Part shown: positions 9,469 through 62,373 of the stretch, one piece after another | How the letters are laid out: every line of letters starts with the position of its first letter | How positions within the stretch are numbered: the first letter of the stretch is position 1 | DNA from: an uncultured Verrucomicrobiae bacterium | GTDB lineage: Bacteria; Verrucomicrobiota; Verrucomicrobiia; Limisphaerales; UBA11358 | DNA: 64,000 bases | Reading direction: 5' to 3' | NCBI GenBank assembly: GCA_963842445.1 | Contig: CAWJHF010000009.1 | Location: 20,217-84,216, forward strand | The notes under the pieces: generated by a model | Told to the model about the DNA's origin: nothing | Database searches by the model: none | Seen by the model: only the letters and a program-made list of their open reading frames with translations | Program-made: the position numbers and the translations under genes

Positions 9469-10206
9469 TCAAGCCCGAGCGCCAGGCCCGGGCGCGGACA
9501 TTGCCTGCAAGAGCCCCCGCACATCATTCCTCAGAAGCCAATCGCAAAGTTGGATGTCTGCCGGTTCGTCAATGTCGATGGCCTGAATCCATGAGATTGG
9601 AAAAAAGCGATGTCCCGGTCCGTAGAATGTTCCCGAAGACCGCAACGCTGGCACAGAGGCAATCCAAATTGCGCCACTGGGAGCATAAAGTTTGGGGAGG
9701 TCTTGGGAACGGATCTCAAGCGCCTTGGGGTTGAGGTATTTGGGCTGGTTCTGCGCGTCCATCTGAAATGCCCACCATGGTTTGGTTGGACCAAAATCCG
9801 CACAACTAAGCAGAAAGGACGCCTTGCTTTGCTCGAACGTTTTAAGCTGCGCGCGGATCAAATCTCCGGTCCTCAACGGACAACTCGGCATAAGCAGTAT
9901 GAGGGCATCGTAGGATTCGACCCAATGCTCTTCGGCCTGTTTCAATGCTGTCAGGCCGGCCTCGCTGGCGCCAGCCTGATCGTCATTGGCGGCGTTGCGC
10001 AAAAACGGGGCCTCGGCGCCATGAACGATGGCGATCTTTGCCGTTTCGGGGTCATCGGTTGAAACAAGCACCCGCCCGCAAACGTTGGAAGCGAGCGCCG
10101 CTTCCACCGACCAAGCCAATAACGGCTTGCCGCCAACCGGATGGATGTTCTTCTTCGGAATCCGACGGGAGCCGCCGCGAGCGATGATGACGCAAAGGGT
10201 CTTCAT
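9469..10206 (-). CDS. pseF: CMP-nonulosonic acid cytidylyltransferase (PseF/NeuA family)
   Basis: ORF 9469..10455; real start MKTLCVIIARGGSRRIPKKN at 10206. This forms an ATGA overlap with the upstream gene stop (10203-10205). Confidence 0.85.
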   Translation of the reverse strand: MKTLCVIIARGGSRRIPKKNIHPVGGKPLLAWSVEAALASNVCGRVLVSTDDPETAKIAIVHGAEAPFLRNAANDDQAGASEAGLTALKQAEEHWVESYDALILLMPSCPLRTGDLIRAQLKTFEQSKASFLLSCADFGPTKPWWAFQMDAQNQPKYLNPKALEIRSQDLPKLYAPSGAIWIASVPALRSSGTFYGPGHRFFPISWIQAIDIDEPADIQLCDWLLRNDVRGLLQAMSAPGPGARA

Positions 10207-11129
10207 GGTTGATCCATTTTCACGCACGCGGAACCTGCTTCCAATACGGCCACGACGCGCAGCAGATGTTCTCTGGGAATCACCAACCTCCGGGTGCGCA
10301 CCTGCTCCAGGAATGCGGCCAGTGCAGATCGAAAGGCGCGGAAGGAATCCTGAAAGACGGCGAGCTGTTCCCCCTGTTCGCCGATGTAATGAATGCGGAT
10401 CTCGCAGTTCGCCCGGCCGGTGGCGTGAAAGCACGTCACCGGACCGTTCCTCCATCGCGCGAAAAGATGCACCGCCCCCCGCTCTCGCCAGACGCGATGT
10501 TCCACTATTACTGCCGGTTCCGCAATGTACCGGAGGACGGGATCAACCAGATGCGCCGCATAAGTTTCCCATTTCATCGGCGTAACGGCATGGACGGCAC
10601 GCAGCTCGCCGATCCGGGTTCTTTGCCCGGCATCCAGGAGCAATTCCTCCGCGAAATATAATGCCGAACAGGAGAACAACTGCCACGGCTCGCGGGCTTC
10701 GTTCAACAGACGATCCGCCGCGGCCCGGGAGAGGGCCAGTGGTTTGTCAATGTAAACGGGAATCCCGGCGCGAAGAAAAGGCGAGGCAAAACGATGGTGA
10801 TTCCCGGCATCATCTCTCGCAAGCAGGAGACCGTCCACCTCGCCCAGCATGTCTTCAGGTTTGTGGCAGACGTGTGTGATCCTCGAAGCCGCCGCTACTT
10901 TGCGGGTGATGGCTTCATCCTGGGTCCAGACATGCGTGACCGTCACGTCTGTCAAAAAGTCAGCAGGATATTTCTGCCGGCTGAGATACTCCGGAATGAC
11001 GGGAAATCCGCACCCGGCCATGGCGACCGGATCGTAGCCGTTGCAAATTGCCGACCACGAGAACGGATGACCGTTCCCTTCGCTCAGGCCGATGATGCCA
11101 AGTTTCAGATGTTGATGCGCGTCTGCCAT
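10203..11129 (-). CDS. Gfo/Idh/MocA family oxidoreductase
   Basis: LKLGIIGLSEGNGHPFSW ... GIPVYIDKPLALS matches the N-terminal Rossmann fold and the EKP-like motif region of the family. Confidence 0.75.
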   Translation of the reverse strand: MADAHQHLKLGIIGLSEGNGHPFSWSAICNGYDPVAMAGCGFPVIPEYLSRQKYPADFLTDVTVTHVWTQDEAITRKVAAASRITHVCHKPEDMLGEVDGLLLARDDAGNHHRFASPFLRAGIPVYIDKPLALSRAAADRLLNEAREPWQLFSCSALYFAEELLLDAGQRTRIGELRAVHAVTPMKWETYAAHLVDPVLRYIAEPAVIVEHRVWRERGAVHLFARWRNGPVTCFHATGRANCEIRIHYIGEQGEQLAVFQDSFRAFRSALAAFLEQVRTRRLVIPREHLLRVVAVLEAGSACVKMDQP

Positions 11130-12025
11130 GTTCCGGGATTCAACAAATCCTTGTCGCTGATAGGTAACGGACTTCGATCAAAACTCTCCGGCAACGGTTG
11201 CAGGGAGAATTGGCACAACTCCTTGAGTTGCTCCGCAAGATTCACCCCGACCACAACCGCGTCCACCTCTTCCAAGTCCAGCGCGAATCTGAGCAATGCG
11301 TGGATCGGAGAGATGTTGACTTTCGCCAACCTGCGGTTCAATTCCGCAATAGCCGGGAGCAGACCTTCCATGCCTGCCGGCACTTCATCAGAGCCCAGCA
11401 GGAGTGCCCCCTGCAAGAACACCGAGCGTACGTGTATCTCAACACCCTTGTTCCGTAGCTCGTGGATTGTCCCGTCCCGCAGCAGGCGTTGGTCGGCCAG
11501 ATTAAGTGGAAGTTGAATGATCTCGAAAGGGAAGACTTTGGAAAGCTCGGTCACTTGATGCCGGTTGTAAACCGAGACGCCGATCTTGCCGACTTTCCCG
11601 GATTCTTTAAGGGCGTGGAGCGCTTCGGCCAGGTAATGGCCTCCCGGCTGCAAAAGGTTGTCGGGGTCGTGCACCAGAAGCGCGTAGCAGGATTCCGCCC
11701 GAAGATCGTCGCAGGAAAGCTGGTATGCCTGCTGCAGCAGCCTGCCGGTCTTCGGGAAGAAGGCCCCCTCCCGAAATTTCGGCGTCTTGGTGATGAATCT
11801 GGGCATCCATTCCGGGGGACGCAATGAACCCACCAGATGCTCGCTCTCTCCGTATTCGAATGCCGTGTCGAGAAAGTTCAGGCCACACGCGGCAGCACTT
11901 GAGAGGATTTCGGCTACCTCGGCTCGTGAAGGAGGCTTGTACGCCCTTTCGCGGATGCCATAGCGAAGACCCAATTGGACGGTACCCAAGGCGAGTTTGG
12001 CGTGTGCTTTCATGAATGGTCGCAA
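11105..12025 (-). CDS. aldo/keto reductase
   Basis: KLALGTVQLGLRYGI ... LNFLDTAFEYGESE ... IQLPLNL has the AKR (beta/alpha)8 signatures. Confidence 0.85.
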   Translation of the reverse strand: MRPFMKAHAKLALGTVQLGLRYGIRERAYKPPSRAEVAEILSSAAACGLNFLDTAFEYGESEHLVGSLRPPEWMPRFITKTPKFREGAFFPKTGRLLQQAYQLSCDDLRAESCYALLVHDPDNLLQPGGHYLAEALHALKESGKVGKIGVSVYNRHQVTELSKVFPFEIIQLPLNLADQRLLRDGTIHELRNKGVEIHVRSVFLQGALLLGSDEVPAGMEGLLPAIAELNRRLAKVNISPIHALLRFALDLEEVDAVVVGVNLAEQLKELCQFSLQPLPESFDRSPLPISDKDLLNPGTWQTRINI

Positions 12026-13305
12026 TCAATCCGGGGTCAGCTTCCGAACAGCCTCAATCACATATCTGACATCCCCGTCGCTCATGGCCGGATACAGCGG
12101 CAGACTGAGTGCGCGAGAATAGTATTCCTCGGCAACTGGACATTTGCCAGGTTTGTAGCCGTAAGTCTGCCGATACCACGGCTGCAAATGAACGGGGATG
12201 TATAAAACCTGGGTACCCACTCCCTTTTGCCTTAAGCCGGTCATGACCTCCGTTCGTGTCCTGCCGATGCTCTTGAAATCAATCTGCACGGTGTAAAGAT
12301 GCCACGATATCAGGTCGCGGTTTTTGGGATTGGTCAAACCCGGCGTGCGCAGCCACGACAAATCACCAAAGGCTTCATTATATTGCCGCACAATTTCGCG
12401 CCGGCGCGCAACGAACTGATCGAGACGCTTGAGTTGAGCAAGGCCCAGAGCGCATTGGATGTCAGTCAGTCTGTAGTTGTATCCCAGGTCCTGCATTTCG
12501 TAATACCAGGGACCTGCTCCGCGAGTTGAGGGTTGCCCGCCTTCACTTCGTTTCGGCGCGGTCGCGCCGAAGCATTCAGCGAAGGCGGAAGGGTTGAGGG
12601 TTGAGAGCCGGCATCCGGGCCGAGGCCCTGGAAGAGCGAAGGTTGCCTTACGATGCCATGCGAACGCAGGCGCCGCGCCTGTTCGGCCCAAACTTCATTG
12701 TCCGTCACCAGCATCCCGCCCTCGCCCGTGGTCATGGTCTTCACCGGGTGAAAACTGAAAACGGTCATGTCCGCCCAAGGATGCCCGCCCAGCTTCCAGG
12801 TTCGGCCCTCATGGACAAATCCGCCACCCACGCCGTGGCAGGCATCTTCGATGACTATCGCTCCGCGTTCACGCGCGAGCCTGGCAATGGAGGGCATGTC
12901 ACACGGTTGCCCGGCGTAATCCACAGCGACAACCGCTTTGACGTCCGGCTTCCACGCGCGCTCCAGCGCTGACGGGTTGAGATTGTAGCTCACCGGGTCC
13001 ATGTCCGCAAAATCCGGCGTGGCACCAACGAAGGCGGCGCAGTTGGCCGATGCCAGGAACGTGTTGGGCGAGGTGATGACGCGATCTCCACGCCCGATCC
13101 CGGCTGCCCGCATGGCCAGGTGCAAGGCGGAGGTCGCACTGTTGACGGCGACGGCATGACGGGCGCCAACTTTTTCCGCAAAGCGCCCTTCAAACTCTTC
13201 CACTTTGGGGCCACCGGTCAGATAGTCCGAGCGAAGGACATTGCAGACTGCTTCAATGTCCCCCTCGTTGATGCTCTGCCGGCCGTATGCGAGAACCTGG
13301 GGCAT
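12026..13305 (-). pseudogene. pseC: UDP-4-amino-4,6-dideoxy-N-acetyl-beta-L-altrosamine transaminase (DegT/PseC family), frame-disrupted
   Basis: The N-terminal 279-aa ORF (12466..13305) ends in junk after ...RLRSHGIVRQPSLFQGLGPDAGSQPST. The C-terminal part (GPWYYEMQDLGYNYRLTDIQCALG...) continues in another frame (12026..12691). Deleting the 68 nt at 12536-12603 restores one frame. Confidence 0.85.
12525..12603. mobile_element. 57-bp nested-palindrome insertion flanked by 11-bp direct repeats (MITE/REP-like) inside pseC
   Basis: The direct repeat gttgagggttg occurs at 12525-12535 and 12593-12603. The 57 nt between them contain ccgccttc...gaaggcgg and a central ttcggcgcg-gt-cgcgccgaa hairpin. 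Confidence 0.6.
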
Positions 13306-28824: not shown

Positions 28825-28882
28825 GGGGAAAAGATGCTGAAGGAGCAGCCAAAGTCGAGTTCTGAAACGGGGTTTGTGAAAC

Positions 28883-28934
28883 GTGATGCGTGAAACGTGA
28901 AATTGCAAATCACGTTTCACGTTTCACGCATCAC
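28883..28934 (-). terminator. perfect 20-bp hairpin immediately 3' of infA (no U-tract)
   Basis: 28883-28902 pairs perfectly with 28915-28934, leaving a 12-nt loop. Built from GTGAAAC heptamers. Starts 3 nt after the infA stop. The missing T-run makes the terminator role uncertain. Confidence 0.45.
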
Positions 28935-28936
28935 AT

Positions 28937-29155
28937 TCAACTGTGCCGGTAGGTGATGCGCGCCTTGTTCAAATCGTAGGGCGACATTTCAACATTGACC
29001 TTGTCGCCGACGCTGATGCGGATGAAATTTTTCCGCATCTTGCCGGAGATGTGCGCGAGCACCTCATGCCCGTTCGGCAGGGCGACACGAAACATTGTGC
29101 CTGGCAGCACTTGTTTGACGCTGCCGGTCAATTCGATTGGTTCTTCTTTGGGCAC
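28937..29155 (-). CDS. infA: translation initiation factor IF-1
   Basis: ...[59 protein letters not shown] start at 29155 gives the canonical 72 aa. Confidence 0.9.
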
Positions 29156-30395: not shown

Positions 30396-30459
30396 CGGGA
30401 GGGACGGCGTGTCGCCGTCCCAAACCGAAATCAGGGACTCCGGCACGGCGTCCCTCCCC
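30396..30459. repeat. REP-like double hairpin of the GGGACGNCG family
   Basis: gggacggcg-tgt-cgccgtccc plus gggac...gtccc, enclosed by gggaggg...ccctccc. Lies directly 3' of the thiS stop. Confidence 0.6.
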
Positions 30460-31579: not shown

Positions 31580-31604
31580 ATTTTCAAATCTGTTCTTTAA
31601 TAAA

Positions 31605-31697
31605 CACCGAACATCCCACATCGAACTCTGAACATCGAAGTTATTCGACTACGACACATTAGACGTTCGATGTTCAATGTTGGGTGTTCGATGTTCC
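31605..31697. repeat. imperfect palindrome of inverted heptamer arrays (ATCGAAC / GTTCGAT)
   Basis: Left units accgaac/atcccac/atcgaac/tctgaac/atcgaag. Right units gttcgat/gttcaat/gttgggt/gttcgat/gttcctc. Sits between the thiH stop (31702) and the thiS relic start. Confidence 0.65.
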
Positions 31698-31701
31698 TCA
31701 T

Positions 31702-32904
31702 TTATGCTGTCAACGCCGCGTCCCAATCTTTCCACACCGGCTCGTAGCCAAGTTTGCGGATCAAATCCGCCACTTCGCCGGCGGAACGGTCATCGGCAAT
31801 TTCAAATTGGCCGGTCGCGTTCGTCGCGCGGTTCGGCTGCGGCGCCCATTCGCTGGCACCGGACGCCAGTTCCACAATCCGGCCGCGCACGGTTTGATGC
31901 AGCTTTTCCCTGCCCGCGCCGGTGTAACCGCCCGGCTCAGTGTGGCTGCCCGCGCTCATCATCGTAATGCCCAGCGGGAGCAGGCCGTCGCGCAGTTTCG
32001 ATGATTCGCGCGTCGAAAGCACCAGACCAACGTCGGGAAACATGATGCGCAGGGCGCAGACCAGTAGCGCCAGGTCGCGGTCGCTCATGTGCGTGAGCGG
32101 CTGGAATTCGCCCGCGCACGGACGCAGCCGCGGCAGCGAAATCGTCAACTGCGCCTTCCAGCAATTACGCAACAAATAATCCGCATGCGCGGCAACGCTG
32201 ATGGCTTCAAACCGCCAATCGGCCAGTCCGTAAAGCGGGCTGATGCCGAGCCGGCGGAAACCGGCGGCGTAGGCGCGTTCTGGCGTTTCGAGCCGCCACT
32301 CGAAATTCCGTTTCGGCCCGGCGGTGTGCATGTCCGCATAAACTTTCCGGTCGTAGGATTCCTGATAAACCACCAGCCCGTCCGCGCCCGCCGCAACCAG
32401 CGGCGCGTAGTCGGCAGTTCCCATCGGCCCAACTTCGAGTGAAATGCTTGGCCACTCCGGATGCAGCGCAGCGATGCAGTCGCGCAGGTAATTGTTCGAG
32501 ACAAATTTCGGATGTTCGCCCGCGACGAGCAGGAGGTTCCGGAATCCTTGTGACTTGAGTTCCGCCGCCTCGCGTTTCACTTCGTCCAGCGAGAGCGTCA
32601 CGCGCAGAATCGGGTTGTCGCGCGAGAAACCGCAGTATTGGCAGTTGTTGATGCACTCATTGGAAAGGTAAAGCGGCGCGAACAACCGGATGACCTTGCC
32701 GAACCGCTGCTGCGTCATCATGTGCGATCGCCGGCCCATGTGCTCCAGCAATTCAGCCGCCGCCGGCGAAATCAGGTTCGCAAAATCCGCGAGCGACAGC
32801 CTGGGTTTCGCCAGACTTTCCCGCACCGCCGGCGCACCAGCCGCCAGCGACCGTTGCGCCAGCGACTGCGCCGGCAACGAATTGAACTCGGAGACAAAGC
32901 TCAC
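31702..32904 (-). CDS. thiH: 2-iminoacetate synthase ThiH (radical SAM)
   Basis: LYLSNECINNCQYCGF carries the CxxxCxxC radical SAM cluster. Full-length ThiH-like, 400 aa. Confidence 0.9.
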   Translation of the reverse strand: MSFVSEFNSLPAQSLAQRSLAAGAPAVRESLAKPRLSLADFANLISPAAAELLEHMGRRSHMMTQQRFGKVIRLFAPLYLSNECINNCQYCGFSRDNPILRVTLSLDEVKREAAELKSQGFRNLLLVAGEHPKFVSNNYLRDCIAALHPEWPSISLEVGPMGTADYAPLVAAGADGLVVYQESYDRKVYADMHTAGPKRNFEWRLETPERAYAAGFRRLGISPLYGLADWRFEAISVAAHADYLLRNCWKAQLTISLPRLRPCAGEFQPLTHMSDRDLALLVCALRIMFPDVGLVLSTRESSKLRDGLLPLGITMMSAGSHTEPGGYTGAGREKLHQTVRGRIVELASGASEWAPQPNRATNATGQFEIADDRSAGEVADLIRKLGYEPVWKDWDAALTA

Positions 32905-33001: not shown

Positions 33002-34345
33002 ATGGCACGCAAATTTTCAAAACCGCACCGCGGCGCGTCGTTCATGGTGCTTGGCGTCGGCTCATTCGCGCAGAGCATCGGTGCGGCACTGGCCGACGCC
33101 GGCGCAAGTGTTTCGACCTATCTCACGCGCAATTACGGCCATTTCCCGCCGTCGCTCGTCGGACCCACTTTTTCGCATGGTTCAGTCGCCAGCCCGGTTC
33201 CGCTGATCAAGAAGCATGGCGTTGATGCCGTCATTCCGCAGTCCATTGACTGGGCGCTGGCCCCGTGGGCGGAGGATTTGCTGCAATCGGGCGCCGGCAT
33301 TTTCAGTCCCACGCGCGAGGCGATGCGCATCGAACGCGAACGTGATTTTGCCCGGAAACTGTGTGCCGAGTTCAAAATTCCGTTCCCGCAGGCTTACGTC
33401 GCGTCGAACCGGCTGGAGACCGAAAAAATTCTAACAAATCATCCGCAGCCGTTCGTCATTAAAAACCCGCTCTGCTCGCCGACCAGTCCGATTCACACGA
33501 TTTTGTGCGAGACCATCGAGGATACCCGTGCCTGGCTGCGGCATGTGAATTATGCCGAGGGCGTTTTTTTGCAGGAATACCTTGGACGCGCCGAGGCCGG
33601 ACACATTGCGCTGGTGAGCAGCGGCGAAATTTATTCGCTCGTCACGAACCAGGAATACAAATACGCCTTCAATGGCAACCAGGGCATCGTCGCCGGTGCG
33701 CCGCTGGGCGGCTTGGTCGAGCGCGACGAAAACGACAAATACGGCCTGGCGCGCGAATTGATTCATCCGCTGCTGCCTTGGTTTCGGAAAGTGAATTATC
33801 ACGGCCCGATTCAAGTGACGGCCATCAAAGTAGGACAGGCTTCCAGCCTGTCTCCATCGAAAAAGAAGTTAGAGACAGGCAAGATGCCCGTCCTGCGCGG
33901 CAAATGGCACGTCATCGAATACAACATCCGCATTGGCGTCACCTCCGGCCCGATGATTTTGCGGATGCTCAAAAACCCGGCGGAAATTGTCCTGCAAACC
34001 GCGCGGAACCAAAAACTGGAATTGCAGTTCAATGAAAAATTGAACTTCGGCTGTTCGCTCACGTTGGCGGGTTACGGCTACCCGTTCACGCAGGTGCGCA
34101 GTCCGCACCTGCCGCTCGAAGTGGACGGCCAGTTTGATTGCGATGTGTGGTGGAACGAAGTGGCGCGCGGCGCGGACGGCCAATTGATAGCCACCGGCCA
34201 TCGCATTGCGGACGTGATTGCGCTCGCGCCGAAGCTCGACGCAGCGATTGCGAAGGCTTACGCCAACATTCGCAAAATCCGGGTCGTAGGCAGCTACTTC
34301 CGGACGGACGTTGGACAAAGTTTATGGCCACCGGGGAACGTGTGA
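33002..34345 (+). CDS. PurD-like ATP-grasp protein (phosphoribosylamine--glycine ligase family, divergent)
   Basis: ATP-grasp core (...FVIKNPLCSPTSP..., ...VFLQEYL...) and a PurD-like C-domain (...GHRIADVIALAPKLDAAIAKAYANIRKIRVVGSYFRTDVG). Atypical N-terminus. Confidence 0.65.
   Translation: MARKFSKPHRGASFMVLGVGSFAQSIGAALADAGASVSTYLTRNYGHFPPSLVGPTFSHGSVASPVPLIKKHGVDAVIPQSIDWALAPWAEDLLQSGAGIFSPTREAMRIERERDFARKLCAEFKIPFPQAYVASNRLETEKILTNHPQPFVIKNPLCSPTSPIHTILCETIEDTRAWLRHVNYAEGVFLQEYLGRAEAGHIALVSSGEIYSLVTNQEYKYAFNGNQGIVAGAPLGGLVERDENDKYGLARELIHPLLPWFRKVNYHGPIQVTAIKVGQASSLSPSKKKLETGKMPVLRGKWHVIEYNIRIGVTSGPMILRMLKNPAEIVLQTARNQKLELQFNEKLNFGCSLTLAGYGYPFTQVRSPHLPLEVDGQFDCDVWWNEVARGADGQLIATGHRIADVIALAPKLDAAIAKAYANIRKIRVVGSYFRTDVGQSLWPPGNV
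33830..33898. repeat. 69-nt double-hairpin element inserted in frame in the PurD-like gene
   Basis: gtaggacaggc-ttcca-gcctgtc ... gacaggc-aagat-gcccgtcct. Encodes VGQASSLSPSKKKLETGKMPVLR between IQVTAIK and GKWHVIEYN. Confidence 0.6.
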
Positions 34346-44968: not shown

Positions 44969-46312
44969 TCACACCGCGCACGGCGCCAGAATCGCGTCGG
45001 TCATGCCGTGGATGATTTTTTTGTCGGCAGGATTCACCGTTGCCAGCACGCCGCCGAGCTGCGGGCGCGCCGCGTCCCCTTCGCCGGAAACAAAATAATA
45101 CGGACACAGCCGCACACGCCCCTTCATCGTCTCAACGGAGTTTTTCGCAAAATCAAACCACTGTGTCTCGACGAGCGCCGGCTTGTGATAACGCTGGAGG
45201 ACGCGCGGTGACCGGTCGAAATGTTGAAGGGCGTCGTCCACCGCCTTCGCCCAGTCCGCCTGCGGCAAATCGCTGCCGAGAAAGACCCCGCGCGCGCCCC
45301 ACGCCTGCTCGGAAAAACCGGACACCTTCAAAATCAGGTCGCGCTCGCGCTGCGACAGCGTTTTGAGCTGCCGCCAGTCCGTCAGGTTCAATTCCGGAAT
45401 CGCCGCCTGCGGCGGCATTGGCGCCGGATCAATGATCCAGGTGTAGGGGACCAGTTTTTTCAGCCGGCTGAAAAAACCTTCGCCGAGTTCCTGCCGCCAG
45501 AAGCCTTGCAGGTTCCGGTTCCATAACAGGGCAAACAGCATCTTCTCCTCGAACAGCGGCTTGGGCGGCGGCGTGAGACGGATTCGCCTTCCAGCCGCCA
45601 GTTCAAAAACCATTTTTGAATTCGGCACGTTGGCCAGATCGAACAACTCGAAAAAACGATAGACCGCGTCGCCATCTGAAAAGTCGTTGAATCGTGAATC
45701 GTGAACCGTGAATCGTGGTCCGAGTTGTGTTGCCATCCACTCCATTTCCGGGCGATAGGTCGCCGCTTCCTCCGAGACGACAATGTGAACCATCTTGGCA
45801 CCGCCAAAAATGCTTTCAAAGCCGCGCACCATGCCGTCCGCACCGCCGATGAGTTCGGAGTTCGGAGTTCGAAGTTCGAAGTTTGAATACGTTTGGTTCA
45901 GCCACGCCGTCAACCCGATGCCGCCCGGCACGGAATCCAGTTCGGTGATGCTGAGGCCGGTCTCCGTCAGCAAAATGTCGGGGCGAATGACGCGCGGCAC
46001 GTCGTTCTTGAATGCGGGCGAACGCTGGAGCGCGATGAGGTCGGCTGGCTTGCCCAGGTCGAGCCAGCGCGCGACCCATTCCGGCTGTTTGCCTTCGGCG
46101 CTTTTGCGATAAAGCAGGTTAACCGCCCGATAAAATTGCAGCAGCACGCGCCCCAGCGATTCAATTTCCTTCGCCAGATTTTCTCCAAGCGGAAACGGCG
46201 TTGGCGAAATCCGCCAATCGAGTCCGGCAAACAAACCGCCCGGCGGCAACGCGTCGCGGATGAAACGCGCATTCCGTTCGAGAGTTCCAGGTTGCGTTGT
46301 TGCGTCAGTCAT
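44969..46312 (-). CDS. conserved hypothetical protein (possibly circularly permuted ATP-grasp-like)
   Basis: 447-aa ORF. ATGA overlap with the upstream gene at 46309-46312. ...SITELDSVPGGIGLTAWLNQ... and ...DAVYRFFELFDL... The family call is from memory and weak. Confidence 0.65.
   Translation of the reverse strand: MTDATTQPGTLERNARFIRDALPPGGLFAGLDWRISPTPFPLGENLAKEIESLGRVLLQFYRAVNLLYRKSAEGKQPEWVARWLDLGKPADLIALQRSPAFKNDVPRVIRPDILLTETGLSITELDSVPGGIGLTAWLNQTYSNFELRTPNSELIGGADGMVRGFESIFGGAKMVHIVVSEEAATYRPEMEWMATQLGPRFTVHDSRFNDFSDGDAVYRFFELFDLANVPNSKMVFELAAGRRIRLTPPPKPLFEEKMLFALLWNRNLQGFWRQELGEGFFSRLKKLVPYTWIIDPAPMPPQAAIPELNLTDWRQLKTLSQRERDLILKVSGFSEQAWGARGVFLGSDLPQADWAKAVDDALQHFDRSPRVLQRYHKPALVETQWFDFAKNSVETMKGRVRLCPYYFVSGEGDAARPQLGGVLATVNPADKKIIHGMTDAILAPCAV
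45699..45726. repeat. 4 tandem heptamers GAATCGT/GAACCGT inside a CDS
   Basis: gaatcgt gaatcgt gaaccgt gaatcgt. Encodes ...PRFTVHDSRFN... on the minus strand. Confidence 0.8.
45851..45885. repeat. 5 tandem heptamers GAGTTCG/AAGTTCG inside a CDS
   Basis: gagttcg gagttcg gagttcg aagttcg aagtttg. Encodes ...SNFELRTPNSEL... on the minus strand. Confidence 0.8.
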
Positions 46313-51479: not shown

Positions 51480-51532
51480 TGGTAGGGACGCCGCGCTGCG
51501 GCGTCCGGTCGGCGCAGCGCGCCGGCCTACCA
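51480..51532. repeat. REP-like element (GGTAGGGACGCCGCG...GCGGCGTCC family)
   Basis: Outer stem tggtagg...cctacca encloses gacgccgc-gct-gcggcgtc and ggcgc-agc-gcgcc hairpins. Its first half closely matches the reverse complement of 14651-14684. Confidence 0.65.
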
Positions 51533-51967: not shown

Positions 51968-52040
51968 GTAGGAGCCGAGGTAACGAGGCTCTGATATCAA
52001 TTTCCAATTTCGAAATGAGCCTCCTGACGTCGGCTCCTAC
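51968..52040. repeat. 24-nt inverted repeats (21/24 complementary) with a 25-nt spacer
   Basis: gtaggagccgaggtaacgaggctc (51968-51991) faces gagcctcctgacgtcggctcctac (52017-52040). Sits just 3' of the L,D-transpeptidase stop. Confidence 0.65.
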
Positions 52041-59932: not shown

Positions 59933-60943
59933 TCAGGACAAAAATCGCCGGACCATATTTTCCAGCGCCGCCAGCCAGAGCGGATGTTCGTTCAAACACG
60001 GAACCAGCTCGAATTCCTTCCCGCCCGCCGACAAAAACGTCGCACGCCCACGAATGCCGATTTCCTCAAGCGTCTCCAGACAATCGGAGACAAACGCCGG
60101 GCAGATGACCATGAGCTTTTTAATTTCACGCCTGGGCAGTTCGGCCAGCATCACATCCGTGTAAGGCATCAGCCACAGGTCGCGGCCCAGCCGGGATTGA
60201 AACGACACGGAATATTTTCCGGCGGGTATGCCGGCTTGTTTCACGAATGCCGCAACGGTTTTGAAACACTGGGCGCGGTAACACGTCGCGTGCGCCGGGC
60301 TGGCAACGTTGCAGCAGTTCAGCACGATCAAACAATGGCGGCCGGTCGGGTCTGATTCCCTGAGATGCCGCACCGGCACGCCGTGAAAACTGAACAGCAA
60401 ATGGTCAAAACCCGCCTCCAGATGATTCTTGGCGCTGGCCGCCAGCGCCGCAATATAATCCGGCGCGTCACCATAGGGCGGCTGAACCTCAATCCGCATT
60501 CGGGGCGCGACCCAGGCTGCGACTTTTTTCACCCGTTCGACGGCCGTCTCGTAGCTCGACATGGCGTAGTGCGGGAACAGGGGAATCAGCAAAACCTCGT
60601 CAATCTTCTCCTTTGCCAGCCTGCGCACCGCTTCTTGAATTGATGGATTCCGGTATCGCATCGCCAGTTCCACCGGCACGGTGACACGCTCCTGCAATTT
60701 TGCCTGAACCCTGCGGCTCGTTACAATGAGCGGCGAACCCTCGGGCGTCCAAATTATGTGATAGGCCTCGGCGGATTGTTTCGACCGCTTGATGAGAATC
60801 ATGGCCACGATAATCGCCCGCAGCGGCCACGGAACGTCAATCACACGCCCGTCCATCAAAAATTCACGGAGATAACGCCGCAGGTCGCCGACGGCAGTCG
60901 AGTCCGGCGAACCCAGATTGACCAGTAAAACGCCTTTGCTCAT
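59933..60943 (-). CDS. hemH: ferrochelatase
   Basis: Start MSKGVLLVNLGSPDS (60943), forming an ATGA overlap with the hemY stop. Contains ...LLFSFHGVP... Confidence 0.9.
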   Translation of the reverse strand: MSKGVLLVNLGSPDSTAVGDLRRYLREFLMDGRVIDVPWPLRAIIVAMILIKRSKQSAEAYHIIWTPEGSPLIVTSRRVQAKLQERVTVPVELAMRYRNPSIQEAVRRLAKEKIDEVLLIPLFPHYAMSSYETAVERVKKVAAWVAPRMRIEVQPPYGDAPDYIAALAASAKNHLEAGFDHLLFSFHGVPVRHLRESDPTGRHCLIVLNCCNVASPAHATCYRAQCFKTVAAFVKQAGIPAGKYSVSFQSRLGRDLWLMPYTDVMLAELPRREIKKLMVICPAFVSDCLETLEEIGIRGRATFLSAGGKEFELVPCLNEHPLWLAALENMVRRFLS

Positions 60944-62373
60944 TTGGCTGTCAGGAACCTTTCCACGCCCTCGGCAATGTTGCAACCCGACAAAATTGAA
61001 TCACCCAGCGAAACACCGTCGCGATAGTGGCCGGCAAAAAACAGCCCGGGCGCCTGGTTTTCAATTTCCGTCAACAGTCCCCGGTAACGGCCATACCCAA
61101 GATTATATTGCGGAATCGCCTTGGGATACACCACACCATGCACAAATGCCGGCTGGCCGCGCACCCCAAGCAGAACGCGCAAATCCTCGCATGTCAATTC
61201 GACCAATTTGTCCATCGGTAATAAAGCGAGTTCAGGCTGCCGCTCGCCGCCCAAGTAGCTCGTGAGCGTGAGATGTCCGGCGGGCGCGCGGTTCGGAAAC
61301 AGCGATGACGAGAAAATTGTGCCGAGAATGTTGAAGCCCTCAATTTTTGGAATCAACATCCCGAAACCCTGGCAAGGATGAGCAACGTCCTCGCGCCGAA
61401 AGCCCAAAACGACGCTCGCCACCGGCGGATAACGGATTTCGGAGAATGCAGAAAGATCAAGCCTTGATTGGAGCGCCGGTCTCCGATCCGGCGTGTTGCC
61501 GCCTTTGATTCGCGCCGGGGCGGAGACCGGCGCTCCAAGTTCCACGTTCAATTCCGCCAATTTATGCGCCGTGCCGCAATAAATCACCGCGCTGTGTTCC
61601 GCTTCACCCGCGGAAGTTGAAACCCGCCATCCACTCTCCATCAGTGTGATTTTTGTGACCGATGTGTTGAGTTTCACCGCGTCGCCGAGTTCCAGTTGGA
61701 GCTTGTCCGGCAAAACCTGCAGACCTTCGTCGAAGGAAAACTTTGGCGCGCGGTCTTTGGCGATTTCGCCGCGCCGTTTGCGTTCGCCTGCGCCGAAAAT
61801 CTGGCCTTTGATGAGCGAACCGTAACGTGCTTCGAGTTCGGTCAGCCTCGGGAATGCCTGTTGAACGGATAATTTGTAAGGATCACCCGCATAAACACCG
61901 GCCACCAACGCGTCAATCACGTGATCCAAAAATTCCCGGTTCAGCCGGCGTTCGACGAATTCGGCGACGCTTTCTTCCTTGCCATCGCGGCGGCGTGGCA
62001 CGAATGGTTCGCGCAACACGGCAAGCTTGGCTTTGGCGGTGAAAAGTCTTGTCGTGAAAAATCCCAGCGGCGACCCCGGCATCACGATGGGCCGCTGGTA
62101 ACGGACGACGTATCGTGTCTCGGCTTCCGGCTCGGAATCAAGTCGTCGCGATTCCAAACCCGCGTCGTGGATGAATTGGGCGATTTTCGGCGACGTTTCG
62201 AGGATGGTGTTCGGCCCGCATTCGGCCAGATAACCATCCCGCCGGATGGATTGTATTACGCCACCGACGCGCCCGCCCGCCTCATAAACTGCGACCGGGA
62301 TGCCTTTGCGTTTCAGATAAAACGCCGCAGTCAACCCCGTGATGCCGGCTCCGATGATGGCAACGGATTTCAT
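60940..62373 (-). CDS. hemY: protoporphyrinogen/coproporphyrinogen oxidase (HemY type)
   Basis: MKSVAIIGAGITGLTAAFYL ... GGVIQS ... FAGHYRDGVSLGDSI has the FAD amine-oxidase fold. Confidence 0.85.
   Translation of the reverse strand: MKSVAIIGAGITGLTAAFYLKRKGIPVAVYEAGGRVGGVIQSIRRDGYLAECGPNTILETSPKIAQFIHDAGLESRRLDSEPEAETRYVVRYQRPIVMPGSPLGFFTTRLFTAKAKLAVLREPFVPRRRDGKEESVAEFVERRLNREFLDHVIDALVAGVYAGDPYKLSVQQAFPRLTELEARYGSLIKGQIFGAGERKRRGEIAKDRAPKFSFDEGLQVLPDKLQLELGDAVKLNTSVTKITLMESGWRVSTSAGEAEHSAVIYCGTAHKLAELNVELGAPVSAPARIKGGNTPDRRPALQSRLDLSAFSEIRYPPVASVVLGFRREDVAHPCQGFGMLIPKIEGFNILGTIFSSSLFPNRAPAGHLTLTSYLGGERQPELALLPMDKLVELTCEDLRVLLGVRGQPAFVHGVVYPKAIPQYNLGYGRYRGLLTEIENQAPGLFFAGHYRDGVSLGDSILSGCNIAEGVERFLTAK
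61470..61536. repeat. perfect 15-bp inverted repeat with 37-nt spacer inside hemY
   Basis: ggagcgccggtctcc (61470-61484) and ggagaccggcgctcc (61522-61536). Encodes ~GAPVSAPARIKGGNTPDRRPALQ, a segment that looks inserted relative to my memory of HemY alignments. Confidence 0.6.

Follow-up and report, generated by a model that had tools for sequence, protein, structure and literature searches.

A frame-keeping palindromic repeat in a heptamer array of pseC, and a separate one-base loss as the probable cause of the split gene, in an uncultured Verrucomicrobiae bacterium

In the 64-kb stretch of DNA analysed here (the window), the gene pseC (UDP-4-amino-4,6-dideoxy-N-acetyl-beta-L-altrosamine transaminase; 12026-13305, minus strand) lies in two frames as sequenced, and the best explanation of the whole is probably that a frame-keeping 54-nt repeat sits in a pre-existing array of heptamers and that, separately, the gene has lost one G. 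The N-terminal frame corresponds to the ORF 12466-13305, and the C-terminal part is found in a different frame at 12026-12691. The initial annotation had attributed the split to a palindromic element of MITE or REP type, inserted with an 11-bp target-site duplication. The pair of GTTGAGGGTTG repeats, the nested palindrome and the split gene that it described are all present in the sequence.

Comparison with orthologous genes places the lesion outside the palindromic element. The N-terminal frame, which was thought to be shifted by the element, passes through it and continues to ...NPQLAEQ, equivalent to the NPQLAE[RQ]GPW of an alignment of 120 orthologues. Beyond the element, the homology of the DNA (CTCAACTCGCGGAGC) with the orthologues continues in this N-terminal frame, and the missing G comes directly after it. 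DNA alignment with the orthologues L001, L003 and L005 maps the frame-breaking loss to 12513-12514 (plus strand), where the window has CC and the orthologues CCC. On the gene strand, the window reads CAGGTCCC and the three orthologues CAGGGTCCC or CGGGGTCCC; the aligned stretch across the loss is GAGCAGGTCCC in the window, GAGCGGGGTCCC in L001 and L003, and GAACAGGGTCCC in L005. The lost base (GGG to GG, in CAG-GGT-CCC) is located 22 nt beyond the 54-nt core and 11 nt outside the heptamer array, and 15 codons past the frameshift the N-terminal frame ends at a premature stop (12466-12468, minus strand) preceded by ...AEQVPGITKCRTWDTTTD. Judging from these alignments, the pseC frame appears to be broken by the separate loss of one G outside the insert.

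Addition of one G gives pseC an open frame of 1281 nt, whose 426-aa product matches TIGR03588 over its full length (protein residues 5-423, profile positions 2-379/380) with 467 bits, above the equivalog cut-off of 423.5, and shares 69-89% identity with 120 PseC proteins of Verrucomicrobiota. The repaired protein also contains the Glu that stands two residues before GPW in 118 of the 120 orthologues. The 161 codons after the shift contain no other stop, and comparison with three orthologues gives them a dN/dS of 0.11-0.19. Because the downstream part of the gene still looks selected, the missing base reflects either a very recent mutation or an error in the assembly, the two being about equally probable. 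Two JGI metagenome scans revealed no second allele of the junction between pseC and the element, and a window-wide frameshift survey, which is a weak test, gave no sign of indel-rich sequence, the ten candidate ORFs having no Pfam hits. Two pairs of ORFs were discarded: 37076-39088/39030-40742 looks like two genes (an internal Met follows closely on the upstream stop), and 55687-56370/56292-57269 appears non-coding. The remainder of the pseudaminic acid operon had been described as intact, and this is upheld: of the adjacent genes, PseB and PseG score above the NCBIfam equivalog cut-offs, and PseF, PseI/NeuB and PseH match their profiles below the cut-off. To call the pseudaminic acid pathway defective, read-level confirmation of the indel is needed first.

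The direct repeats on both sides of the palindrome have a different origin from the one first proposed. GTTGAGGGTTG occurs exactly twice in the 64 kb (12525-12535 and 12593-12603), and in shuffled sequence its expectation is 0.01, with two or more copies in none of 100 shuffles. The first repeat constitutes the left part of a split array, GTTGAGG GTTG (12525-12535, plus strand), and the second is contained in the right part, AGG GTTGAGG GTTGAGA (12590-12606, plus strand). The array, (GTTGAGG)n on the plus strand, is (CAACCCT)n on the coding strand and encodes QPSTLNPQL. When 12536-12589 is removed, GTTG and AGG are rejoined into (GTTGAGG)3 GTTGAGA, which encodes SQPSTLNPQLA as in the pseC orthologue L123 (76% identical), where a bare (CAACCCT)3 array exists without any palindrome. 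The nearer relatives L001 and L005 have arrays at the same site with other inserts, and L003, at 89% identity the closest orthologue, has a single heptamer, the window differing from it by +75 and -1 nt. Read in this way, the 11-bp repeats are the two halves of an in-frame (GTTGAGR)n array and not a target-site duplication. Such GTTGAGR units flank most copies of the element family, and since they flank copies in other genes they cannot be a duplication specific to this locus; the array is also present without the palindrome in the empty alleles of another gene, RimO. No further occurrence of the heptamer pair pattern was found in the window.

It is thus very improbable that a 57-nt MITE or REP and its 11-bp duplication, 68 nt in total, shifted pseC from an ancestor with the junction ...QPSTRGAGPWYYEMQ, the intact allele then being ...CAACCCTCAACTCGCGGAGCAGGTCCCTGG.... 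Three observations speak for that history: an 11-bp repeat of this kind is not expected by chance, the element is indeed one of a family of repeats, and deletion of the 68 nt does give one continuous open frame, of 403 aa. However, the restored junction (...QPSTRGAGPW) is found in 0 of the 120 orthologues and destroys the Glu conserved in 118, the DNA downstream of the element follows the orthologues in the N-terminal frame as far as the missing G, and the gain measured in RimO is 54 nt with no duplication. Removal of 68 nt keeps the frame only by arithmetic, because the 54 nt plus 14 nt (two heptamers) offset the loss of one nucleotide. The alternative also offered by the initial annotation, a 69-nt in-frame insert that had lost one nucleotide or carried a one-nucleotide sequencing error, came close to the correct solution, but the insert is 54 nt and the base was lost outside it. 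An annotation of pseC as disrupted by a mobile element is therefore not warranted: the insert does no harm to the frame, and a single-base indel is the sole lesion. More generally, direct repeats around a hairpin can mimic a transposon footprint and prompt a wrong repair, which is a warning for gene callers and for pseudogene counts in MAGs.

The size and the ends of the inserted unit were established by the comparison of filled and empty alleles of RimO. A second copy of the element, 90% identical over 71 nt, is located in the RimO gene of locus L003. From anchor to anchor, the empty alleles (L126, L127) measure 99 nt and the filled ones (L111, L003) 153 nt, a difference of exactly 54. The insertion point, GTTG^AGA, lies inside the array and no bases are duplicated; the 57-nt element and the 68-nt footprint first described are accordingly replaced by a 54-nt unit. 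This is a clean demonstration that a palindromic repeat enters coding DNA seamlessly, in steps of 18 codons. By analogy with RimO, and given the arrays at this site in L001 and L005, it is likely that the 54 nt entered an existing array in pseC as well; a closely related empty pseC allele with a bare four-heptamer array was not found among the orthologues. Relative to an allele without an array, the insert size is 75 nt.

The same figure would also result from a different history, in which array and core arrived jointly as a 69-nt block of heptamer, core and heptamer beside an L003-like GTTGAGA, duplicating the 6-bp GTTGAG. Such an event, 75 nt in total, would also be in frame and would leave the frameshift to a separate 1-nt loss. 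The single heptamer of L003, the GTTGAGR units on both sides of most copies and the 69-nt in-frame inserts that the initial annotation reported in other genes of the window are compatible with it. Joint arrival is nevertheless rather unlikely, because the filled and empty RimO alleles differ by the core alone, the pseC site carries a bare array in L123 and arrays with other inserts in L001 and L005, and identical core ends are found in a GACTTTG array (L060) and outside arrays (L051).

The core itself (CCCGCCTTCACTTCGTTTCGGCGCGGTCGCGCCGAAGCATTCAGCGAAGGCGGA; 12536-12589, plus strand), defined by the RimO difference and shared by the copies, comprises 54 nt or 18 codons and can also be written CCCGCCTTCACTTCGTTTCGGCGCGGTCGCGCCGWAGCNNNNNGCGRAGGCGGA; on the minus strand it reads LPPSLNASARPRRNEVKA followed by the first two bases of a Gly codon. 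Its nested palindrome extends from 12537 to 12588, with complementary arms of 8 bp in the outer stem and 8-9 bp in the inner one. The outer stem is formed by CCGCCTTC (12537-12544, plus strand) and its partner GAAGGCGG (12581-12588, plus strand), with 97% of the cells paired in 12 copies; at their fuller length of 11 nt (12537-12547 and 12578-12588) the arms are 91% complementary. The inner stem-loop, TTCGGCGCG-GT-CGCGCCGAA (12552-12571, plus strand), has arms at 12552-12560 and 12563-12571 that are 100% complementary. Folded as RNA of the mRNA strand, the element reaches -36.1 kcal/mol (z = -5.6 against chance), and the 54-nt core folded as DNA reaches -18.8 kcal/mol (z = -4.1). Across 12 copies, 94% of the structure cells pair and only one pair covaries (CG:6, UA:4), in a set retrieved with a search pattern whose left arm was fixed. 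The core consists of two inverted copies of a GC-rich unit of about 27 nt (CCGCCTTCRCTTCGYTTCGGCGCG), and single units of 30-32 nt show no folding beyond that of shuffled sequences (z = +2.0 and +0.5). Neither Rfam, at the gathering threshold or at E <= 1, nor any other known family gave a match in 12400-12750; in the whole window, the sole Rfam match was a tRNA-Thr located elsewhere.

Two of the three coding-strand frames through the core are open, and with a length of 18 codons this predicts a core that becomes a surface loop on translation and leaves the gene unbroken. In PseC, array and core contribute 25 residues (7 + 18) to such a loop. PDB homologues cover only residues 3-218 and 270-423, and in an AlphaFold2 model with a mean pLDDT of 83.6, residues 224-264 are coil with a pLDDT below 50. 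According to the model, the array would lie in a disordered linker that joins the large PLP domain to the C-terminal one. The length of this linker varies from 14 to 45 residues among the orthologues. A native linker of about 44 residues, which would speak against disruption by the element according to the initial annotation itself, is matched by two orthologues (P0002 and P0108) whose linkers have 45 residues and carry related inserts, in frame, at this site.

The core belongs to a dispersed family, which upholds the initial annotation in so far as it described an insertion of REP type. Copies about 90% identical, flanking heptamers included, occur in frame in about ten Limisphaerales/Verrucomicrobiota MAGs. 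In a family scan with one genome per species, at least 15 copies in about ten MAGs, among the matches listed, share a 52-nt CCGCC..GGCGG core, three of them in the MAG SPRUCE 514; the 64-kb window holds no other copy at three or fewer mismatches. The family is scattered through Limisphaerales (Verrucomicrobiota) genomes from peat and bog. The ORFs that host core copies are intact and recognisable, and include RimO, RecJ, AroB (3-dehydroquinate synthase) and a TPR protein. A short subfamily also exists, a well-conserved 30-nt unit found at about a dozen other loci and likewise inserted seamlessly. GlnRS carries this short unit, and RimO and RecJ carry the 54-nt core. That the insert of L001 is a decayed half of the window element was considered and rejected, as it belongs to the separate 30-nt subfamily. 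C-CCGCC stands at the start of the long core and CCGTC, which includes CGTC, at that of the short unit; GTAG is absent.

The presence of arrays in housekeeping genes bears on the idea that the heptamer array is a phase-variation switch of a surface-glycan gene and that the split pseC represents its reversible off state. Units of seven bases alter the frame unless they change in threes, one extra unit (+7) would offset the -1 loss, pseC acts in a surface-sugar pathway, and heptanucleotide phase variation is documented for neuO of E. coli (PMC13001214). Still, hardly any weight can be given to a switch, because the lesion lies in a GGG run 11 nt from the array and not within it, the array has just 2 + 2 units with the core between them, and arrays or cores are also found in RimO, RecJ and GlnRS, for which on/off switching is implausible.

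In the proposed mechanism of movement, the core would enter seamlessly at GTTG^AGG within an existing in-frame heptamer array, without duplication of the target, and would be mobilised in trans by a tyrosine HUH transposase of RAYT or IS200/IS605 type through single-strand peel-and-paste. This is suggested by a strong hairpin with defined ends, by insertion that leaves no duplicated target, and by a preference for GTTG as the 5′ flank, present in 8-9 of about 15 copies listed (about 60%), the others having GCTG, GTTA, CTTT or CCGT. A competing proposal, which we consider unlikely, is that gene conversion or template switching copies the core, the heptamer arrays serving as homology arms and the hairpin being incidental. 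The same heptamer phase, GTTG^AGR, in those 8-9 copies would fit such copying, as would the swapping of long and short cores at one and the same site in the pseC, RimO and TPR-protein genes, a short unit that lacks its own hairpin, and the lack of any transposase linked to the core copies examined. Against it, cores with identical 54-nt ends occur in the GACTTTG array of L060 and in the non-array DNA of L051 and L093, where there are no homology arms, and at 11-17 nt the arms would be very short for recombination by homology. The seamless insertion of the 30-nt unit, which has no fold of its own, is left unexplained by a hairpin-dependent mechanism. The spacer between the two copies of L051 contains a fatty-acid-hydroxylase-like ORF and no transposase, and no core copies were found in viral contigs. 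Among 119 core-motif hits, 31 share 7-mers on both sides, compared with 14.7 on average (25 at most) in shuffles, a figure confounded by the common GTTGAG, and the period-7 score returned no hits at a threshold that was too strict. Integron attC sites (GTTRRRY core sites) were rejected as a source, as the flanks are direct and not inverted and do not fit the consensus.

Several known systems resemble the core in part. MITEs (Correia/NEMIS, ERIC, Nezha and others) generate target-site duplications and usually measure 70-300 bp. The core shares with them its small size, non-autonomous dispersal, inverted-repeat arms and occasional in-frame location, but the target-site duplication, tested at RimO, is absent. 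In REPIN/RAYT and IS200/IS605 systems, the mobile unit is a hairpin with defined ends that inserts without duplicating its target and prefers a short sequence as its 5′ flank; palindrome-associated elements derived from IS200/IS605 insert 3′ of a fixed target of 4-5 nt. The hairpin doublet, fixed ends, seamless insertion and preferred 5′ flank of the core agree with this, whereas its target is loose (GTTG in about 60% of the copies listed) and it is found mostly in ORFs and not between genes. Single-strand transposition of these types is a subject of PMC6006769 and PMC8049555. As in REPs and REPINs, the 54-nt core is an inverted doublet, an imperfect palindrome that forms a long hairpin.

Intragenic REPs are the closest precedent within the same phylum. 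According to the accessible part of Di Nocera et al. (2013, BMC Genomics 14:522, PMC3733652), GTAG- and CGTC-tagged REPs and their dimers are intragenic, with the verrucomicrobium Opitutus terrae holding the largest number of them inside ORFs, dimers in ORFs encode 20-30 residues in frame, and CGTC is altered to other tetranucleotides in many repeats. Like these, the elements described here are short, GC-rich, dispersed palindromes that form in-frame dimers in unrelated housekeeping genes, among which are genes of DNA repair (RecJ in the present case). Unlike them, the core has no GTAG tag, a single unit forms no stem-loop, and the core lies within tandem arrays of heptanucleotides, which are absent from the same part of PMC3733652. 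The Rickettsia palindromic elements RPE-1 and RPE-4/6 (Ogata et al., as cited in the accessible part of PMC3733652) are also selfish palindromic repeats in frame, translated as extra surface segments that the host protein tolerates. They differ in their hosts (Alphaproteobacteria versus Verrucomicrobiota), in their unrelated, AT-rich sequence and in the length of RPE-1 (100-150 bp), whereas the core has 54 nt, heptamer arrays at its flanks and a filled/empty allele pair as direct proof; the resemblance is functional only, both being in frame and tolerated. In-frame inserts of REP or RPE type were thus already known, and the link with heptamer arrays was not found in the literature searched. 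A well-defined verrucomicrobial family now joins the short list of in-frame selfish repeats formed by Rickettsia RPEs and Opitutus REPs.

A tentative extension is that Limisphaerales possess, inside housekeeping genes, a two-layer system in which frame-keeping heptamer arrays serve as landing pads for the seamless insertion of the 30- and 54-nt cores. If this were true, such a system would generate disordered surface loops in proteins throughout the lineage, driven by a single-strand transposase or by repeat-directed copying. At the same codon position, the sequence of the array unit varies between lineages, and the versions of the RimO loop array are TLNSQLSTLN, IRNPKSEIRN, IQNSKFKIQN and SRHVSPVTRH.

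The pseC gene (minus strand, 13305..12026) is split between two frames, as the initial annotation had proposed: an N-terminal ORF (12466..13305, minus strand) covers the first 264 residues of a DegT-type aminotransferase and then runs on out of frame for 15 codons, and the C-terminal part (12026..12691, minus strand) is open in a different frame. The announced direct repeats of GTTGAGGGTTG are also present, at 12525-12535 and 12593-12603, as the sole copies within the 64-kb window (0.01 expected by chance), and are separated by a nested palindrome with outer arms at 12537-12547 and 12578-12588 and inner arms TTCGGCGCG and CGCGCCGAA within 12552-12571. This arrangement had been read as a MITE/REP insertion that caused the frameshift, and removal of 68 nt does yield one continuous frame of 403 aa. 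A protein search with this 'restored' PseC returned Verrucomicrobiota orthologues 69-89% identical to the query (120 matches listed), and the supposedly ancestral junction QPSTRGAGPW was found in none of the 120 aligned. Their alignment showed that the RSHG-GPWYYEM stretch is a length-variable linker (14-45 residues, median 19), that the N-terminal frame crosses the palindrome unbroken (...GSQPST-LPPSLNASARPRRNEVKAG-NPQLAEQ) and that the tail NPQLAEQ agrees with NPQLAE[RQ]GPW of the orthologues. The break lies instead in a run of G, identified by a DNA alignment of the window pseC with its three nearest orthologues among the matches listed (L001, L003 and L005): all share CTCAACTCGCGGAGC, after which the window reads AGGTCCCTGG, as against GGGGTCCCTGG in L001 and L003 and AGGGTCCCTGG in L005. 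One G is missing: on the plus strand, CCC in the orthologues corresponds to CC at 12513-12514 in the window. The 68-nt deletion mends the frame by arithmetic only, because 54 + 14 nt, equal to 2 modulo 3, offsets the missing base. The other reading on offer, a 69-nt in-frame insert with a 1-nt loss or sequencing error, was essentially right, with the size of the insert and the position of the lost base now corrected.

With one G put back, the frame is open over 1281 nt, and its 426-aa product scored 467 bits against TIGR03588, the PseC equivalog (cut-off 423.5), and carries, as do 118 of the 120 orthologues, Glu two residues ahead of GPW. Genes for PseB and PseG, scoring above their own cut-offs, and PseF-, PseI/NeuB- and PseH-like genes, scoring below theirs, adjoin pseC. 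Between pseC and pseF in the operon lie, on the minus strand, a gene for a KidO-like aldo/keto reductase (11105-12025; match below the NCBIfam cut-off) and a 308-aa ORF (10203-11129; no NCBIfam match), both outside the canonical PseB-C-F-G-H-I set. The 161 codons beyond the frameshift contain no further stop, and dN/dS against three orthologues was 0.11-0.19 after it and 0.07-0.17 in the N-terminal part, which argues that the break is recent or artefactual. The odds between these are near even; assembly or polishing could plausibly have turned GGG into GG beside a hairpin of this strength, and the pseC/element junction was not found in scans of JGI metagenomes.

Once explained in this way, the pseC locus itself is ordinary; of wider interest is the repeat family, which inserts 18 codons seamlessly and is associated with heptamer arrays. 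Tandem 7-nt units, usually GTTGAGR, flank nearly all copies of the long and short families described below, with GTCGAGG or GACTTTG in some loci and the 8-nt GTTGAAGC at one. A search of RimO genes recovered both the empty (...KQT-LNS-QLSTLN-YLIARG) and the filled (...LNS[SAFASGYGATAPKRSEGG]QLSTLN...) states of one site. The empty alleles (loci L126 and L127) read ATA GTTGARG GTTGAGA GTTG AGA GTTGAGG, and the filled ones (L111 and L003) are the same plus CCCGCC...GGCGGA between GTTG and AGA, a difference of exactly 54 nt (153 vs 99 nt between anchor motifs) with zero duplicated bases. The 11-bp repeats can thus no longer be held to be a target-site duplication, and the MITE identity fails on this point. 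They are the two halves of a split heptamer array: taking 12536-12589 out of pseC rejoins GTTG and AGG into GA(GTTGAGG)3GTTGAGA-GCC (coding strand GSQPSTLNPQLA). A bare array occurs in the pseC orthologue L123 (CAA CCC TCA ACC CTC AAC CCT CAA CTC), and about a dozen further PseC orthologues have QPSTLNPQL-like linkers. Heptamers are found at the site in the near relatives L001 and L005 too, around other inserts, and L124 and L125 carry yet other GC-rich unit variants there. In the most economical history, an in-frame array would have been gained (+21 nt), the 54-nt core would then have entered it seamlessly (+18 codons) and one base would finally have been lost. Array and core may also have arrived together, in a 75-nt gain that repeated the 6-bp GTTGAG, and the single heptamer in L003, the closest orthologue among the matches listed, is consistent with that.

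That the element belongs to a repeat family was borne out by a sensitive blastn search of the retrieved loci, which found another copy in L003 (90% identity across 71 nt), in frame within the RimO gene and flanked by GTTGAGG units. A degenerate 22-nt pattern for the left arm, run against one genome from each species, matched at least 117 stretches. The long family, like the window element, has a CCGCC...GGCGG core of invariant 52-nt length and is represented by at least 15 copies from about ten MAGs, which among the matches listed are nearly all peat, bog or palsa Limisphaerales/Verrucomicrobiota (SPRUCE 514 has at least three copies and bog_1418 at least two). The insert in the pseC of L001 (protein P0002) belongs to a second, short family of 30 nt (CCGTCTTCGCTTCGCTTCGCCGCGCCAAGG). 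Two copies of a ~27-nt unit in inverted orientation make up the long core; looser occurrences of the unit were many, among the matches listed, in Verrucomicrobiota, Alphaproteobacteria and Acidobacteriota. This unit (CCGCCTTCRCTTCGYTTCGGCGCG) has a far wider distribution than the family of 54-nt dimers; it was also seen beside tRNA genes (loci L028, L056, L117 and others) and in MAGs of Alphaproteobacteria, Acidobacteriota and Planctomycetota, often within other palindromes. As DNA the long core folds at -18.8 kcal/mol (z = -4.1), and the 79-nt span 12525-12603, as mRNA-strand RNA, at -36.1 kcal/mol (z = -5.6); no folding was found for single units. In an alignment of 12 distinct copies, 94% of structure cells are paired and a single covarying pair (CG in six copies, UA in four) lies in a side stem of 3 bp, a modest support because the left arm was fixed by the search pattern. 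A search of Rfam gave no match to the element.

The ends of the core are defined and are the same in GTTGAGR arrays, in the GACTTTG array of L060 and in non-array DNA (L051 and L093), and in 8-9 of about 15 copies GTTG lies directly 5′ of it. Cut-and-paste transposition of MITEs leaves target duplications. Defined ends, absence of duplication, a hairpin and the GTTG flank fit better with a single-strand route such as REPIN/RAYT or IS200/IS605 transposition, by which the core would spread. The evidence leaves room for repeat-guided copying, by gene conversion or template switching: no transposase was linked to any copy examined, the non-folding 30-nt unit is inserted just as seamlessly (RimO proteins P0137 vs P0141), and long and short forms substitute for one another at the same sites.

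Being 18 codons long, the core can never shift the frame alone. Two of the three frames of its coding strand are open, the remaining frame b containing TGA; pseC and an intact RecJ (L109) read frame a (..ARPRRNEVKAG..), and RimO, a TPR protein (L007 and L053) and the tail of a 3-dehydroquinate synthase (L070) read frame c (..APKRSEGG..). GlnRS (L096) carries the short unit in frame. Every copy within an ORF points the same way, for which the sequence offers a simple reason: GTTGAGG holds TGA and three successive units place it in every frame, so that only the CCTCAAC strand of such an array can be coding. Homologues of known structure (ArnB and others) align to PseC residues 3-218 and 270-423 only, and an AlphaFold2 model (mean pLDDT 83.6, pTM 0.82), confident in both domains, gives residues 224-264 as coil with pLDDT below 50; the insert is thus predicted to lengthen a disordered linker between the PseC domains. 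In RimO, the loop between SWEHG and RGEADAPD (P0121-P0240) holds decapeptides encoded by ~30 nt of heptamers and differing in sequence by lineage (TLNSQLSTLN, IRNPKSEIRN, IQNSKFKIQN, SRHVSPVTRH, LQTPNSKLRS and IGNRKSEIGN), and some loops also hold long (18-aa) or short (10-aa) GC-rich cores. No explanation was found for unrelated arrays sharing one RimO codon position. The RimO of bog_1418 (L111, 105-1880) carries a second, N-terminal low-complexity insertion (...GKHPTSNIQHPTSKEK...SSILNSPSSPILD...), heptamer-derived in look, so one gene can carry several such inserts.

In-frame intragenic REPs are documented: in-ORF REP dimers encode 20-30 residues, intragenic repeats are most numerous in Opitutus terrae, a verrucomicrobium (GTAG type), and in Rickettsia conorii (CGTC type, RPE-4/6), and DNA-repair and RNA-modification genes are frequently among those hit (Di Nocera et al., 2013; PMC3733652). 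Compared with what is described there, the present family behaves alike in ORFs but carries no GTAG tag, does not form a stem-loop as a single unit and is tied to in-frame heptamer arrays, a link of which no description was found in the literature searched. It is accordingly filed as a relative in kind, not a member, of the REP, RPE or MITE families.

Other repeats occur in the window. The heptanucleotide arrays TGAATCG (x4.3) and GAGTTCG (x4.7), at 45688-45717 and 45851-45887, lie inside an ORF without a Pfam match (44969-46312, minus strand, 447 aa), so that in-ORF heptamer arrays are not confined to pseC in the source genome. Long intergenic hairpins at 28875-28937 and 31600-31705, formed by the inverted array pairs GTGAAAC/GTTTCAC and GAACATC/GATGTTC, may be terminators or another array-related repeat class. 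Two more palindromic inserts that keep the frame, with no sequence relation to the pseC core, are found at 33832-33894, in a GARS_C-containing PurD-like protein (ORF 33002-34345, plus strand), and at 61468-61538, in an Amino_oxidase/HemY-like protein (ORF 60940-62373, minus strand); the former begins GTAGGACAGGC and is therefore GTAG-tagged, and the arms of both are small hairpins, like the REP dimers described for O. terrae. More strong palindromes, at 51968-52040, 30397-30458 and 51486-51527 (GTAGGAGCC...GGCTCCTAC; GGGAGGGACGGCG...CGCCGTCCCTCCC-like; GGACGCCGCGC...), appear to lie between ORFs and point to several distinct REP-like families in the source genome.
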